This document shows, one piece after another, positions 2,070-10,369 of a stretch of 11,925 bases of DNA (position 1 is its first letter; each line of letters opens with the position of its first letter). Source of the DNA: a virus (Duplodnaviria > Heunggongvirae > Uroviricota > Caudoviricetes); the IMG/VR virus record IMGVR_UViG_2778261461_000004; one strand, 5' to 3'. A model generated the notes under the pieces. It made no database searches. It had not been told where the DNA came from and was given only the letters and a program-made list of their open reading frames with translations. The position numbers and the translations under genes were made by a program.

Positions 2070-2303
2070 ATGAAATCAAAAGACACCCTAAAGTGGTTCC
2101 CTGCGCAGCTTCCTGAAGTAAGAATTATCCTAGGGGATGCTGTAGTGGAAGTAGCAAAACAGGGAAGACCTATTAATACCAGAACATTGCTTGATTACAT
2201 TGAAGGAAACATAAAGAAAAAATCATGGCTGGATAACAAAGAATTATTACAAACAGCGATATCAGTTCTTAAAGACAACCAAAATTTAAATGGTAAAATG
2301 TAA
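2070..2303 (+). CDS. ydfK: Cold-shock-induced small protein YdfK/YnaE family
   Basis: Translation MKSKDTLKWFPAQLPEVRIILGDAVVEVAKQGRPINTRTLLDYIEGNIKKKSWLDNKELLQTAISVLKDNQNLNGKM matches my recollection of YdfK (77 aa). AAGGAA lies 8 nt upstream of the ATG at 2070. The track's 2037 start has no comparable RBS. Confidence 0.8.
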   Translation: MKSKDTLKWFPAQLPEVRIILGDAVVEVAKQGRPINTRTLLDYIEGNIKKKSWLDNKELLQTAISVLKDNQNLNGKM

Positions 2304-2620
2304 TATAATAAACTTACTTTTTTATCATTTTTCCACTTTAACAACATTTTGCTCCACTTTTCCACGTCCAAACAACTTGAAATCTGGTTAAAATAACACG
2401 CAACACTATTCTTCTTCCTTGAGCCCGCCCGGAACTCGAAAAACAAACCAAGTTAAAGCCATTTTTCACAAAATCGATTTTGGGTCTCACCAAAAATTAC
2501 GGGGTTGCATACGCATTCGTTTATTTTCGAACGTGTACATACAAATATGCACAAAAATAATCATAATTATTTTCTGAGATGCATTATGATATGAACACCA
2601 ATTTCGAATAGAGTCTCACT

Positions 2621-3211
2621 ATGTCTCGAATTTTTGCTTACTGTCGGATATCAACGCTGGATCAGACCACCGAAAATCAACGCCGGGAAATCGAAAGTGC
2701 AGGTTTTAAAATCAAACCTCAGCAAATAATCGAAGAACACATTAGCGGCTCAGCAGCAACCAGTGAGCGTCCTGGTTTTAACCGGTTGCTTGCTCGCCTG
2801 AAATGTGGTGATCAATTGATTGTGACAAAACTGGATCGCCTTGGTTGTAATGCAATGGATATCAGGAAAACAGTGGAACAACTGACCGAAACAGGTATCA
2901 GAGTGCATTGCTTAGCATTGGGTGGCATTGACCTGACCAGTCCAACAGGAAAAATGATGATGCAAGTAATTTCAGCAGTCGCTGAATTTGAACGAGACCT
3001 TTTACTTGAACGCACTCATTCCGGGATAGTAAGAGCCCGCGGCGCAGGGAAACGTTTTGGTCGACCACCTGTGTTAAATGAAGAACAGAAACAGGTGGTA
3101 TTCGAACGAATTAAGTCAGGTGTAAGTATAAGTGCCATTGCCCGGGAATTCAAAACCTCGCGGCAAACCATTTTAAGAGCCAAAGCAAAACTTCAGACAC
3201 CTGACATATAA
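2621..3211 (+). CDS. pinQ: Site-specific DNA invertase, serine recombinase (Pin/Gin/Hin/Cin family)
   Basis: 196-aa ORF with the resolvase N-terminal catalytic motif ([15 protein letters not shown], catalytic Ser in CRIST) and a C-terminal HTH ([22 protein letters not shown]). Size and position next to a tail-fibre assembly gene match Pin-type invertases. Confidence 0.9.
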
Positions 3212-3308
3212 AAAATAATCTCGGTGTGAGATGCTTTACGTGTTCCAAGCCCCCTTCCTTGCCGTAAATGGAAAGATACATCTAATTATAGAATTTATAT
3301 GTTTTACC

Positions 3309-3745
3309 CTACGGCAGTGCTGGCCATTCAATATCCTGTGCAGTTGACGTATCAACACGGTTCAGCAATACCCGATACTTTTTCCATGCTTCCAGCAACG
3401 AGATTTCTTCCTCCGTTGCAATTTCCAGATCTGCAGCATCCTGAAGCGGCGCAATATGCTCACTGGCTACCTGCATCAGGTTGTTTTTTGTTTCTTCCGC
3501 CTCCCGGATCCGGAACAGTTTTTCTGCTTCCGTATCCTTCACCCAGGCTGTGCCGTTCCACTTCTGAAACTCCCCTTCCGGCGATAACCAGGTAACATTT
3601 TCCGGTAACGGACCGAGTTCAGAAATAAATAACGCGTCGCCGGAAGCCACGTCATAGACGGTTTTTCCCCGATGATCTTCAACGAGATGCCACGATGCCT
3701 CATCACTGTTGAAAACAGCCACGAAGCCTGCCGGAATATCTGGCG
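3309..3745 (-). pseudogene. tfaQ: Tail fibre assembly protein (Tfa) remnant, 5'-truncated
   Basis: Translation from [35 protein letters not shown] to DIEWPALP matches the C-terminal roughly 140 residues of lambda-type Tfa proteins. The N-terminal ~55 residues are absent and in-frame stop codons lie immediately upstream. No ATG is available; the track's start is a GTG at 3722 that corresponds to an internal Val of intact Tfa. Confidence 0.8.
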
Positions 3746-5086
3746 GTGCAATACCCAGTCTGATTCTGTCGCCGCTCCACCACGAATCTGAATTTTCCAG
3801 GCCTCAGCCTCCTTAACAGGGTCAATCCACGGCATCACTGGTCCGGAATACACCGCGGTATACAGTGAAGAACGGTCAAGATCGCGGGGTAACCTGATAA
3901 CACCGGATGCCACAGCCTGTTTCAGCCATGCACGATACATCGGGCGGGTTACGGCACCAATAAACCAGTCCTGCAGGATCAGGTAGCCATCAGTAGACTC
4001 AACCAGTTCCTGACGCTGGGCGCTGTAAGTGCCGTTATAGTTTCGTGCCGTACTGGAAAAACTCAGACGACTGCCCGCCGCCACGGCACGCAACTGACCA
4101 TTACGAAAAGTTTCAAGGTTAGGATTGGGACGATCCGACTTCACCATTCCGATTTCTTCGCCGGGTTTCAGATCGTCGTAAATAATGCCTGGCTGAATGG
4201 TAAGCTCGCGTTCATTCTCCTTGCTGTCATTACCATCCGTTTCATAGCTCTGTCCGTCGCCTTTCCGGATGTACATCCCCAGAGCAGCGGCGATCCTTGC
4301 TGCAGTCAGCTCAGAATCTTCATACTCTTTCAGGGCGCTGAGGCGGATCAGCACACCGGACAATAAAGACGTCCCGCGCATCTGGTGCAGACGGCGAACA
4401 AATTTAAGATGCAGCATTCGCTCTGCATCCACTTCTTTGGTTTCCATCTGCCGTCCGGATACAGGACGACTTTTATACACCAGATATTTTTCGGGACGCC
4501 CCCAGTCATCAACAAACACGCCCTGATTCAGCCTGTTGCTCTCATCACTGGTCATGGGAATAAAGTCCGGCTCGAGCGCCTCCAGCCAGAAATGAACACC
4601 GGCAGAAGGCGTCAGGCTGTTTATGCGCCCGGAAACCATCTGGGCAAACACCTCACCATCGCGCAGCCAGGTACGCAGCATCAGACGTTCCAGCATCGGA
4701 CGGGTAAACTGCCCGGTGACTTCCGGACTGACAGACCATTCACTCCATCGGGTGCGTATCTCCGCTGCCAGGTCACGGGCAATGGCACCATTGCGTAATA
4801 CCGGATGTGGCTCGACAATAATCCCGTTTTTCCCCACCACCCGTTCTTCCAGCTTGTCAAATACACCAATGACCAGATCGTGGTTGTTATCAAGGTAACG
4901 GGCCTGCTCACGTAACGACACGGCCCCGTACTGGCTTAACTGGTCGGCAGTTCGGTTCTCCCGTCGGGCTTTGTGTGTCCGCGTCGTTTTTACGGCCTCA
5001 TAAGCCTGGATCACCGCTCGGGAACGCAGCCTTGCCGCTTTCCATCCTGGTGAAAAAACGCCAATCACATCATCAAGAATTGCCAT
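3746..5086 (-). pseudogene. Phage portal protein (lambda gpB-like family), 3'-truncated and read through into out-of-frame tfa sequence
   Basis: The track ORF 3539..5158 contains a portal-like sequence from MAILDDVIGVFSPGWKAARLRSRAVIQAYEAVK onward, with the ATG at 5084..5086 overlapping the gpW-like stop (TGATG). About 447 codons are portal-native, against roughly 500-540 for intact homologs. The last ~70 codons of the track ORF are tfa DNA read in another frame. Confidence 0.7.
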
Positions 5087-5298
5087 CAGAACCTCGCCAG
5101 CCGGTACCCGGGATGCCCCCGTCGTCGTGTAATCAGAGCCGCAAGGCGGCGCTCCCACTCCTGCCGCCCCTGCCGGATCTCAGATAAGTTTTCCATGGTC
5201 ATCTGCTGACCATTAAAAGTGACGGATTTTCCGTCCAGCACCGCCATTTCAGCTTCCGTATAACGCTGAATCATGGCTTCAATATCATTCTGATTCAT
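5086..5298 (-). CDS. Head-tail joining / head completion protein, gpW-like
   Basis: 70-aa protein (MNQNDIEAMIQRYTEAEMAVLDGKSVTFNGQQMTMENLSEIRQGRQEWERRLAALITRRRGHPGYRLARF) between terminase large subunit and portal, as in lambda A-W-B order. The C-terminal RRRG.PG motif resembles lambda gpW. The ATG at 5298 overlaps the TerL stop as ATGA, with GGAGG 6 nt upstream. Confidence 0.6.
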   Translation of the reverse strand: MNQNDIEAMIQRYTEAEMAVLDGKSVTFNGQQMTMENLSEIRQGRQEWERRLAALITRRRGHPGYRLARF

Positions 5299-7397
5299 AA
5301 CCATCCTCCGGAAGTCAGCCAGGGGTTAACATCGTCAGTTACTGTTTTCTTCCGTTTTTGTTTTTTAACAGGCGTGGATACCGGTTCCGGTGTGGGTGAC
5401 GGTTCGGTGCTGTCCGGGACACACTCCAGCCAGGTTTCCCGGCTCGCCCACTCCGGTGCATCCGGCCAGCGGATCTTTTCGTATCCATGCAGAATGACCA
5501 GAGCCTCGGCATACACCATCAGGTCAAAAGCTTCGTTGGCACCGCGACCCGGCTTACTCCATTTCCCGTCACTGCTCCGCTCTTCATACGTCAGTTCGTC
5601 GTAAAACCAGCTCCCCAGCCAGTCAGGGAAATGCACATAGCCGGGACCTGGCGAGTCACGCCATAACGCGTTATTCACCCGGTCTTTCAGGGCATCCGTC
5701 TGAAGAAGCCAGAGCGGTACATCACCTGCGGCCTGCGCCCGTCGGCCCGTTCGTCCGGTGTTATCAGGGAATGTACGGGTGATCAGTTTTGCGCGCCGGA
5801 TGCTGTCGCCCTTAAACAGGTAAATACGTTTACCAAGGCCATCACGACGGCAACGACGCCAGAATTTATAGGCATTATCAGTGACCCCGTCTTCACCGCC
5901 GGAGTCCACCGCCATTGCCATCAGTCGTATTTGTTGAGAAGGATCGGAGGCCAGCGGCCAGCTTTTATGAAAAACATCCGTCAGCAGGACATCCCAGTCT
6001 TCCGGATAGCTGGCCGGATCAATTCGCTGGCTCTCCCCGTCGCTGTCACCGCGCAATGACTGCGTGATGTTGTAACGATCAATAATCCAGCGTTCGCCAC
6101 GGCTGCCATAGCCCGTTACCTGAACCACAAAACGGCGATGACGTCCCGCCTGCACATCCACTGTCGCCACAAGGAAATTAACGCCATCCGGCACACTGCG
6201 GGAAGGAACTGGCTCTGCCCGCTGCTCAAGCAGTTCACTTTTTCGTTGCTCCATGCTGGCGCGGGGAAGATAAGGTAATCCCCAGTCGGTATTGATAACC
6301 GTCTTGAGTGTTTCTTCACTTCCGGTTGTCTCGTATTCCTGTTCTGCAGTAAGCAGTTTGTAAACGAGTTGCGAGAGTGTCTGGTAAGCAGCTGCCGGAC
6401 CCTCCATCCAGAATGACGCAATACGTGAACGCCTGGGATCACCATAACGACTGCCATCCGCATTGATGGATTCACCATCCCGCAACCAGACCCCACGTCC
6501 GTTCAGCTCACGTTTTTGTTCAGGCATAATCCGTCCTGAACAGAAAGGACACTGAATATAAGCCGCCTCACTTGCCAGCACGGGATCGGCAATATCACGG
6601 AAACCAGCAACCACATCGCCGCAGGGCTGAAAATACTCACCACAGTGTGGACATGGCCAGTACCAGCGACGGCGATCACCACGGTTATAGAGCGACAGGA
6701 TCCCCGTGGTTGGTGGAGCCTCATGCGGTGAAGTCCGTCGCCATTTCACATCCTTCACATCCCTGCCGGGGGAACTCTCCACCAGCGTCATACCGCTGGA
6801 CATAAATGTGGTGGTACGTTTTGAGGCAAGAGAGAAGGCATCCCCCTCGCCATCAATATCTTCCGGAAAACGGTCATAATCCGTCAGCGCGACGCATTTA
6901 TAATCTGATGAGGACATGATATTGACTGACGGCCAGCCGATTTTCAGGTAGTTGCCAGCAAGGAATGTTCTGTCATAAACGTTGTTGTCATTTTTGTTCG
7001 GACTCAGGCGACTGACCACTTCCGGGCTGACGCGAAACGTTCTGGCGAGTCGTTTTTTGGAGTGTTCGCGGGCTTTTTCCTCTGTCATCTGAATGATCAG
7101 CATATCCGCAGGATCGCAAATCACGTTGTAAATCACCCAGCCGTCAATCAGGCCGATAGTCTTGCCGGTTCGTGCCGGGCCAACAAATATCACTGCGTCG
7201 TATTCACGCGAGGCCAGGCAGTTCATAGGCTCAATAACATACGGTGCCACCAGCGGATCCCACGGGACTGAGTTCCCTGCCCCCATGGGCACCCGCATAT
7301 ACTGAGCAACGGCATCAGCAACCCGCATTCGTCTCGGTGCGCGAAGGATATAACCTGAATCGGTTCGTGCTGCCTTTGCGGTTTCCTGATTCAGCAT
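5295..7397 (-). CDS. Terminase large subunit (lambda gpA family)
   Basis: 700-aa ORF with a Walker A-like motif VGPARTGKT near the N-terminus, directly downstream of a Nu1-like small subunit. Strong RBS GGAGGAG upstream. The start overlaps the TerS stop (TAATG). Confidence 0.9.
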   Translation of the reverse strand: MLNQETAKAARTDSGYILRAPRRMRVADAVAQYMRVPMGAGNSVPWDPLVAPYVIEPMNCLASREYDAVIFVGPARTGKTIGLIDGWVIYNVICDPADMLIIQMTEEKAREHSKKRLARTFRVSPEVVSRLSPNKNDNNVYDRTFLAGNYLKIGWPSVNIMSSSDYKCVALTDYDRFPEDIDGEGDAFSLASKRTTTFMSSGMTLVESSPGRDVKDVKWRRTSPHEAPPTTGILSLYNRGDRRRWYWPCPHCGEYFQPCGDVVAGFRDIADPVLASEAAYIQCPFCSGRIMPEQKRELNGRGVWLRDGESINADGSRYGDPRRSRIASFWMEGPAAAYQTLSQLVYKLLTAEQEYETTGSEETLKTVINTDWGLPYLPRASMEQRKSELLEQRAEPVPSRSVPDGVNFLVATVDVQAGRHRRFVVQVTGYGSRGERWIIDRYNITQSLRGDSDGESQRIDPASYPEDWDVLLTDVFHKSWPLASDPSQQIRLMAMAVDSGGEDGVTDNAYKFWRRCRRDGLGKRIYLFKGDSIRRAKLITRTFPDNTGRTGRRAQAAGDVPLWLLQTDALKDRVNNALWRDSPGPGYVHFPDWLGSWFYDELTYEERSSDGKWSKPGRGANEAFDLMVYAEALVILHGYEKIRWPDAPEWASRETWLECVPDSTEPSPTPEPVSTPVKKQKRKKTVTDDVNPWLTSGGWL

Positions 7398-9587: not shown

Positions 9588-9793
9588 TTCATTTTCACTT
9601 TTTTAAATCCAACGACAGACGGCTGGCATTTAAGTATTGTGAAATATTATCAAATGTAATCATCATTGATTTACAAAAGATACATTTTGCCCCGAAAGGA
9701 TTCATGTCAGAAACATCAAAAGATGATGTTCTATACTGGGAACCATGACAACACGGGCATCTAAAGTGAATATGGTTTGTAATATTGTCTACC

Positions 9794-10006
9794 TCAAAGC
9801 GCCACTACATGAACAGCGGCAGGACCTTTAGGTCCGTTCTCAATACCAAATTCAACTTCCTGATTCTCAGTTAATGTTTTGAAATCGTTGCTCTGAATTG
9901 CTGAGAAATGGACAAACACATCTTTGCTGCCATCTTTCGGCGTGATGAAACCAAAACCTTTTTCAGGGTTAAACCATTTCACTAAACCAGTCATTTTGTT
10001 AGACAT
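9794..10006 (-). CDS. cspI: Cold shock protein, CspA family
   Basis: 70-aa [73 protein letters not shown] with RNP1-like KGFGFI and RNP2-like VFVHF motifs. AAGG RBS upstream. Followed upstream by a long untranslated region, as is typical of csp genes. Confidence 0.9.
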
Positions 10007-10369
10007 AATTATTACCTTTTGAAGAAATTAGCCCTTGGGCAGAATGGTCCGAAAAAAAATATCAGAGAGAAAAACCAACAAGGAAATCTCAAGAGGTACA
10101 AATAATAAAATTATAACAATGACTGCTTCAGATAAATTTGTAACAAACCAGAACACCATTAACGCATGATTAACCACCCATAGCAAGGATTACTTTTGTA
10201 AAGAAAAACACAGCAATGAAAGAATAGCTTTATTTATTAATAATAACGTGTCATTCTGATTAAGACCTTTTATCTTACCCTTAAGATTTCAGGAATTTTG
10301 GCTCATGGAAGAGTCCTTTTTATTTAAATTTTACATTCCGCGATGTAAATGTTCCGATTTAATATTACC

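Follow-up and report, generated by a model that had tools for sequence, protein, structure and literature searches.

PinQ from the right end of the Qin prophage is probably a relic Tn3-type resolvase and not an orphaned tail-fibre invertase

Two groups of small serine recombinases are among the closest described systems for PinQ, the product of the pinQ gene in the stretch of DNA considered here, which is an 11,925-nt sequence (IMG/VR record IMGVR_UViG_2778261461_000004, hereafter the window) representing the right-hand end of Qin, a cryptic lambdoid prophage of Escherichia coli. The first group, the Din invertases (Gin of Mu, Cin of P1/D6, Pin of e14, and Hin), resembles PinQ in length and in location beside tail-fibre genes, and its members act on inverted 26-bp sites with a 12-2-12 organisation and a consensus of about TTATCNAAAACC. 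The second group comprises the Tn3/gamma-delta resolvases, in which, as for pinQ, a tripartite site array (res) lies just 5' of the recombinase gene and overlaps its promoter; in these transposons, as in the relatives of pinQ, the array is divergent from the transposase gene tnpA. The existence of pinQ and the absence of a substrate next to it are already known and belong to textbook K-12 annotation, where the gene is listed as an invertase; the useful results of the present analysis are its reclassification as a resolvase and the recognition of a cysteine (Cys76) at a position normally occupied by a catalytic arginine. On balance, pinQ is probably a relic TnpR-type resolvase gene, the remnant of a Tn3-family res-tnpR-inverted repeat (IR) module carried by lambdoid phages, and not a Din invertase. 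A literature search returned no earlier description of PinQ or PinR as Tn3-type resolvases, although its coverage was limited and an earlier one may exist.

The window differs by 1 nt from the corresponding region of E. coli strain C1 (NZ_CP195942.1), and the parts of the module on which this reading draws are the following, in window positions.

2508..2533, no strand assigned: vestigial res site I at the crossover-site position, CATACGCATTCG TT TATTTTCGAACG (12-2-12), colinear with site I of eight relatives
2548..2579, no strand assigned: vestigial res site II, TGCACAAAA-N14-TTTTCTGAGA (32 bp), from colinear alignment
2585..2590, + strand: TATGAT, likely -10 box of the pinQ promoter, between sites II and III and in the same alignment columns as TATAAT/TATGAT of the relatives
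2588..2610, no strand assigned: vestigial res site III, with direct-repeat half-sites GATATGAACA and ATTTCGAATA, from colinear alignment
2621..3211, + strand: pinQ, small serine recombinase of 196 amino acids (aa), from Pfam domains, the C1 annotation and protein comparison
2651-2653, + strand: codon 11 (tca), the catalytic serine, present
2846-2848, + strand: codon 76, TGT (Cys), in the motif KLDRLG-C, at the position of Arg71 of Tn3/gamma-delta resolvase
3219..3254, no strand assigned: vestigial right terminal inverted repeat of a Tn3-family transposon, with its outer end CCCCC at 3250-3254

The initial annotation had assigned PinQ to the Pin/Gin/Cin/Hin family, an assignment that protein comparison does not support. 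PinQ consists of a Resolvase domain (PF00239, E 2.5e-36) and an HTH_7 domain (PF02796, E 3.8e-11), and its best sequence match in the PDB is Gin (105.4 bits), with gamma-delta resolvase scoring 82.7 bits. Its identity to PinE, Gin and Cin (D6) is 35-38%, as opposed to 61-84% to homologues paired with Tn3-family transposases, and it is further set apart from the Din invertases by insertions of 4 residues and 2 residues. The recognition helix of PinQ reads KTSRQTILR, as in Tn3-linked resolvases, and not VSTLYK as in PinE, Gin and Cin; the helix (V/L)STLYK shared by the Din family is absent from PinQ. If PinQ is not a Din invertase, the expectation of a Fis-bound enhancer in the 5' part of the gene would not apply to it; at 35-38% protein identity, Fis sites are in any case too degenerate for a scan to be informative.

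The same annotation had described the invertase open reading frame (ORF) as intact, and this holds for the frame, which is open, and for the codon of Ser11, but not for the catalytic centre as a whole. Alignments with PDB entries place the Y, R, S and R68 residues of Tn3/gamma-delta resolvase opposite corresponding residues of PinQ; of the Tn3 set Y6, R8, S10, D36, R68 and R71, the equivalents Y7, R9, S11 and R73 are present, the D36-equivalent position is Glu throughout the PinQ clade, and the R71 position is Cys76, so that the full catalytic set of Tn3 resolvase is not found in PinQ. Position 76 is Arg in all 13 of the other aligned proteins and in 112 of the 120 best homologue clusters, among which Cys76 is confined to the PinQ/PinR clusters and to a lambdoid allele that is 85% identical (P0009). 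In Tn3 resolvase, it has been shown that the R71A and R71K substitutions lead to loss of recombination and to strand cleavage that is ~1000-fold or more slower, while binding to site I is not abolished (Olorunniji and Stark, PMC2794168). The window protein is identical to K-12 PinR (b1374, Rac) and differs from K-12 PinQ (b1545, Qin) at two residues, R3Q and V159A; both K-12 proteins also have Cys76, and their genes lie in the same ynfT-ydfK-pinQ-tfa module with a nearly identical upstream region.

Homologues of PinQ were sought in one genome per species, and those with 57-78% identity were found in Shewanella, Erwinia, Photorhabdus, Mycoavidus, Oxalobacteraceae, Sphingobium and Parasedimentitalea, where the readable neighbours are divergently transcribed Tn3-family transposase genes. 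One of these transposases (beside L023) contains DDE_Tnp_Tn3 (E 1.4e-148) together with DUF4158, and two others (beside L026 and L029) have DUF4158 N-termini. The closest of the transposase-linked resolvases is a TnpR encoded on E. coli plasmids (P0014), which is 84% identical to PinQ and adjoins a 994-aa Tn3-family transposase, as do the resolvases of loci L042-L045. The plasmid element, which matches 1,276 plasmid records, is a minimal Tn3-family transposon of Escherichia/Klebsiella plasmids with the structure IR-tnpA-res-tnpR-IR; its ends are perfect 40-bp repeats, GGGGTCCGCTTGGAAAACGGAAAATATCCCACGCTAAGAC, located directly 3' of the tnpA and tnpR stop codons, beyond which the flanking sequences diverge at once. 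By blastn, this transposon aligns with the window at 82% identity over 2541-3250, from site II through the gene to 39 nt beyond the stop codon. The two share the recognition helix and the layout of the res half-sites, whereas the plasmid element has the transposase, the perfect repeats, strong half-sites (sum 74 bits) and Arg76, and the window has no tnpA, a decayed res, a decayed terminal repeat and Cys76. What the window holds is thus a relic and not a transposon.

Three further observations concern the distribution of these homologues. Neither a 61% homologue in Erwinia phage LS-2018a, whose locus gave the first hint of an upstream half-site array, nor a 44% homologue on a faecal contig has flanking inverted repeats. 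Erwinia oleae (L027, 1268-2652) has a pair of PinQ-clade resolvase genes (198 and 194 aa) in head-to-head orientation, and the 203-bp spacer between them is filled by half-site arrays, which is an unusual double arrangement. Proteins 97-100% identical to PinQ occur in assemblies labelled Alistipes, Draconibacterium, Caldithrix and Nocardioides (L015, L018, L019, L039), and these probably reflect assemblies or metagenome bins contaminated with E. coli or phage DNA.

The organisation of the upstream region also points to a resolvase. In seven diverged relatives, six TGT(A/C)CGAAA half-sites are found at fixed offsets from the ATG within the 120 nt 5' of the start codon: site I at -115(+)/-101(-) as a 12-2-12 dyad, site II at -75(+)/-55(-) as a 32-bp dyad, and site III at -37(-)/-24(-) as a direct repeat. 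A Tn3-type res lying between tnpA and tnpR would be expected to look like this, and the same six-half-site layout is present in the plasmid transposon, whose res site I is TGACCGAAAATGACCGGTTTCGGACA. The half-site core TGTCCGA resembles the half-sites of gamma-delta res, while differences from Tn3/gamma-delta include weak sequence similarity, the direct repeat in site III, spacings of 26/32 bp (28/34/25 in Tn3/gamma-delta) and the replacement of Arg71 by Cys.

In the window, the region 5' of pinQ can be aligned colinearly with the res arrays of the relatives. The site II half-sites score 4.0 and 1.8 bits in the window, compared with 11-16 bits in the relatives, and the proximal half-site of site III scores 8.0 bits, compared with 13.6 in K-12 and the phages and 16.3 in the transposon copies; with respect to K-12, the window has one extra A>T change in this half-site, TATACGAAAT to TATTCGAAAT. 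Summed over all six half-sites, intact res (L023, L042) reach 74-86 bits, the lambdoid allele L048 reaches 55.2, phage 2H10 46.6, L047 40.3, K-12 pinQ/pinR and other phages 28.5, and the window 22.9 bits. The sum for the window is nevertheless the unique maximum of 23,550 placements (null mean -101, standard deviation (sd) 19; next best -21). Judged from the sequence, the array appears to be real but decayed and its function doubtful, and the TATGAT at 2585-2590 would act as the -10 element of a pinQ promoter that the array overlaps. An isolated half-site inside pinQ, TGACCGAAAC (2883, 11.2 bits), is a single match without a partner and was treated as chance. A perfect 14-bp palindrome, CAAAATCGATTTTG, is located at 2469-2482 in the ydfK-pinQ spacer, just 5' of the vestigial res and outside the res alignment; about 0.7 such palindromes are expected per window, and it is kept in the PinQ phages, with a longer, imperfect version in phage 2H10.

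On the other side of the gene, the repeat of the plasmid transposon can be aligned with positions 3219-3254, with 28 of 36 positions matching and one 3-nt gap; the spacing from the stop codon is that of the transposon, and the match lies within the region of blastn homology. Terminal inverted repeats of the Tn3 family are ~38-40 bp long and start with GGGG at the transposon end. It had been suggested that an imperfect inverted repeat, TTTACG...CGTAAA, at 3236-3269 might represent a crossover site; its two 6-nt arms, 22 nt apart, are at chance level as a repeat, no terminator was called there, and the left arm falls within the vestigial terminal repeat.

A history that would account for both flanks begins with insertion of a minimal Tn3-family transposon (IR-tnpA-res-tnpR-IR) between tfa, a tail fibre assembly gene, and ydfK of an ancestral lambdoid phage. 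Subsequent loss of tnpA and the left end would have left, in every lambdoid copy, a decayed res (2508-2610) overlapping the promoter, the tnpR gene now called pinQ or pinR, and a decayed right repeat (3219-3254). The cold-shock protein gene ydfK is the constant neighbour 5' of pinQ in all lambdoid copies (phages, K-12 Qin and K-12 Rac) and lies outside the transposon relic. If this history is correct, an invertible tail-fibre segment would never have been present.

The initial annotation had proposed the opposite, namely that a Pin-family invertase has lost an adjacent invertible segment, consisting of fibre C-termini and tfa genes between two 26-bp sites, through prophage decay. The position of pinQ next to tail-fibre genes, like that of gin, cin and pin, the extensive deletion of the tail region in this prophage and the public annotation as a DNA invertase all speak for such a loss, and the reduction of the neighbouring tail-fibre region to a single truncated tfa, as described at the outset, is borne out by the gene content on this side of pinQ and beyond.

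1-1284, - strand: ydfJ', host gene interrupted by the prophage
between ydfJ' and ydfK: ynfT, from the gene order of the window
2070..2303, + strand: ydfK, from the annotation of strain C1
3309..3752, - strand: tfa remnant with its N-terminus deleted (Pfam Caudo_TAP, E 1.4e-43)
3753..5086, - strand: portal gene remnant, outside the recombinase module and given for context

The tfa remnant is annotated as partial in strain C1, and its similarity to the complete tfa of mEp460 ends at 3753; a deletion has fused it to the portal remnant at 3752/3753, with loss of the head, tail and fibre genes between them. K-12 Qin has a different internal deletion, in which full tfaQ, part of stfQ and nohA are kept, as opposed to the truncated tfa and portal fragment of the window. 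The alternative tail-fibre C-termini and oppositely oriented tfa genes that characterise the Din family are not found beside this one truncated tfa.

Din-type crossover sites were sought with a half-site matrix derived from authentic sites, namely gix of Mu, cix of D6 and pix of e14, together with hix; the matrix gives 26-29.5 bits on true sites and 18 on hixR. The highest score in the window is 7.5 bits, whereas shuffled windows reach a mean best of 9.7 (sd 2.4); this agrees with the earlier failure to find a convincing pair, and the candidate AAACCAAG put forward at 2436-2462 has a negative score in every register (best -5.6). In the intact PinQ phages, in K-12 Rac and Qin and in 20 kb around the locus in strain C1, the best scores are 6-12 bits and do not exceed the shuffled background, and generic inverted-repeat searches of the window and relatives returned short pairs of low identity, with no long inverted repeats. 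In five functional phages (HannyBb, mEp460_ev081, 2H10, Tritos and Kati), the recombinase is 99-100% identical to that of the window and J-lom-stf-tfa is convergent with pinQ, which follows ydfK and precedes attP/int; these phages carry a single stf with a single tfa, or else one fibre module of another kind, with no second inverted set and no suitable inverted repeat. K-12 Rac, with full-length stfR-tfaR-pinR and an identical recombinase, likewise has no second fibre/tfa set and no Din-type site. The orphan state is therefore normal for the pinQ module and not a product of decay in the window. While a recombinase without a usable substrate beside it is indeed what the window contains, the loss of an adjacent invertible segment, given these intact relatives, the low identity to Din invertases and the res and terminal-repeat vestiges on both sides of pinQ, is so improbable that we give it almost no credence. 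A different case is phage HK225 (L010), whose Din-type invertase shares 35.5% identity with PinQ; one weak pix-like site (14.9 bits, ~5913-5938) lies just 5' of the gene, and no invertible segment is annotated. Unlike the PinQ phages, HK225 may harbour a true orphaned Din invertase.

The remainder of the window yielded observations in their own right. Beyond the portal fragment, the gene order continues with terminase genes and then gnsB, ynfN, cspI and the lysis genes. The tfa/portal junction at 3752/3753 creates a 539-aa chimeric ORF (3539-5158, - strand), in which the portal frame continues into an alternative frame of tfa, and a match to the Rfam family IS009 (RF02111; 220.9 bits, E 1e-54) lies within the tfa remnant (3343-3541, - strand). 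A cspA-type thermoregulator 5' untranslated region (UTR) (RF01766; 112.8 bits) is found 5' of cspI (9767-10152, - strand), and cold-shock genes are abundant in this prophage remnant, which contains ydfK, ynfT, ynfN and ymcF in addition to the cspI 5' UTR. Scanning for promoters and terminators was not decisive and placed no terminator in the pinQ-tfa interval.

Several observations weigh against reading pinQ as a relic resolvase gene. The site I dyad of the window scores 9.8 bits, compared with 25.5-30.5 in functional res, and shuffled windows give a mean of 7.5 and a maximum of 17.6; because the score lies inside the shuffled range, site I is not credible alone and is recognisable only through its colinearity with homologues. 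A local alignment of the terminal repeat by itself scores 43, the same as the best of 30 shuffles, and is not significant; the vestige is retained because it is colinear with the blastn homology and not on the strength of an isolated match. No remnant of tnpA was detected in the window by tblastn with the plasmid transposase as query, so the history of insertion is one that we infer. The R71 mutants of Tn3 resolvase have been called 'not inert' (PMC2794168). In addition, the two Cys76 lineages (the window and L047) are separated by a synonymous divergence (dS) of 0.23 with a ratio of non-synonymous to synonymous divergence (dN/dS) of 0.35, and both frames are open, which indicates that the protein is still doing something, as would not be expected of a pure relic. 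Comparisons with Arg76 transposon copies give dN/dS of 0.14-0.19. These values suggest that constraint on pinQ is relaxed yet persisting, and some function, possibly non-catalytic, is likely. The remaining points of this kind come from published work in K-12.

In that work, it has been reported that K-12 PinQ inhibits phage T2 via in-trans inversion of the 1797-bp P segment of e14 (Kirigo et al., NAR 2025; PMC12529663), and this trans-inversion model is the main rival to the relic-resolvase reading. PinQ would then be an active invertase that flips distant Din-type segments, such as e14 P in K-12, and the resulting chimeric tail-fibre proteins would block T2 adsorption. T2 survivors overproducing PinQ carry the 1797-bp P inversion, inversion measured by quantitative PCR reaches 88% with pCA24N-pinQ versus ~30% in the wild type, deletion of pinQ reduces both inversion and T2 survival, and the PinQ effect is abolished in stfP, stfE and e14 deletion strains (PMC12529663). 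Precedents for cross-acting invertases, namely Fin/Hin and Pin on Mu G, are cited in the same study, and its data mean that the Cys76 protein may keep recombinase activity or have relaxed specificity. On the other hand, deletion of pinE locks the P segment despite the presence of pinQ and pinR, and the study includes no overproduction of PinQ in a pinE deletion, no in vitro assay and no catalytic mutant (PMC12529663). PinQ also has Cys at the catalytic position equivalent to R71 (for the role of R71, see PMC2794168) and the recognition helix of Tn3-linked resolvases; pix half-sites score 2.4-3.8 bits on a PinQ-clade matrix, compared with 10-16 for cognate sites, and the e14 region contains no PinQ-type dyad.

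Strain C1 offers a further point of comparison for the trans-inversion model. At its icd locus (L050, 7551-9228), an intact icd is followed directly by a frameshifted iraM, and e14, the P segment and pinE are absent from their usual site; there is no Din-type site in the 20 kb around pinQ, and the pinQ module is present in a single copy, so that neither the usual-site e14 target nor a partner res is available there. Taken together, inversion by PinQ in trans appears unlikely, direct catalysis of the P inversion by PinQ is unproven, and the reported effect on e14 may be indirect. The earlier suggestion that the enzyme acts on a distant site is accordingly matched by a published claim for K-12 PinQ on the e14 P segment, but not by proof that PinQ itself is the catalyst.

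PinQ might instead be a working resolvase at its own upstream res, where it could resolve phage or prophage multimers or recombine co-resident Rac and Qin copies. The res layout is kept at all six positions, lambdoid alleles with Arg76 and better res exist (L048, 55.2 bits; 2H10, 46.6 bits), and two or more copies of the module are present in many E. coli genomes: the ydfK-pinQ-tfa module occurs in >4,800 of 5,426 complete genomes, with a median of 2 copies. In two E. coli chromosomes (L016/L022 and L017/L034), both copies, the Rac and Qin pin modules, are found ~200 kb apart on opposite strands; they are thus inverted and not directly repeated, and Tn3-type resolvases normally need directly repeated res sites. 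In strain ECGI0523, the Qin copy of the module is frameshifted. For the window allele, a chance-level crossover site (9.8 vs 25-30 bits), Cys76 and the single copy in the near-identical strain C1 make recombination at its own site very unlikely, and we regard a working resolvase as a decidedly improbable explanation of this locus.

As the present role of PinQ, residual DNA binding or autoregulation, or no role at all, is favoured over recombination. Under the relic-resolvase reading, the most likely residual activity would be DNA binding, the protein either regulating its own gene through the proximal half-sites that remain or binding the res of related plasmid transposons. A stronger version, which we put forward tentatively and consider possible but less than probable, is that PinQ and PinR are exapted resolvases whose catalysis was crippled by the change from Arg to Cys and which purifying selection has since maintained in lambdoid prophages as sequence-specific DNA-binding factors, acting as autorepressors or as repressors of, or competitors at, the res sites of the related Tn3-family transposons that are common on plasmids of Escherichia and Klebsiella. 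If this were true, the published PinQ-e14 phenotype would be indirect, via PinE or selection. Contact between the two kinds of element is recorded in mosaic lambdoid alleles (L046, L048; P0004-P0008), in which residues 1-76, including Arg76, are those of the plasmid TnpR and the remainder is that of PinQ; in L048, the switch between plasmid-type and PinQ-type sequence lies inside res site II. Such alleles indicate homologous exchange between plasmid transposons and prophages.

The classification of PinQ has consequences beyond this locus. The label 'DNA invertase from lambdoid prophage Rac' is now carried by thousands of proteins, true resolvases of plasmid transposons among them, and it misdirects searches for invertible segments. 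The 2025 model of anti-phage defence depends on PinQ directly inverting e14 DNA, and a resolvase-type recognition helix combined with Cys in place of a catalytic Arg makes the claim of direct inversion worth re-testing. The series that runs from the plasmid transposon, through lambdoid alleles with Arg76 and better res, to PinQ and PinR with Cys76 and decayed res would represent a transposon module in the course of decaying, or of being repurposed, in prophages.

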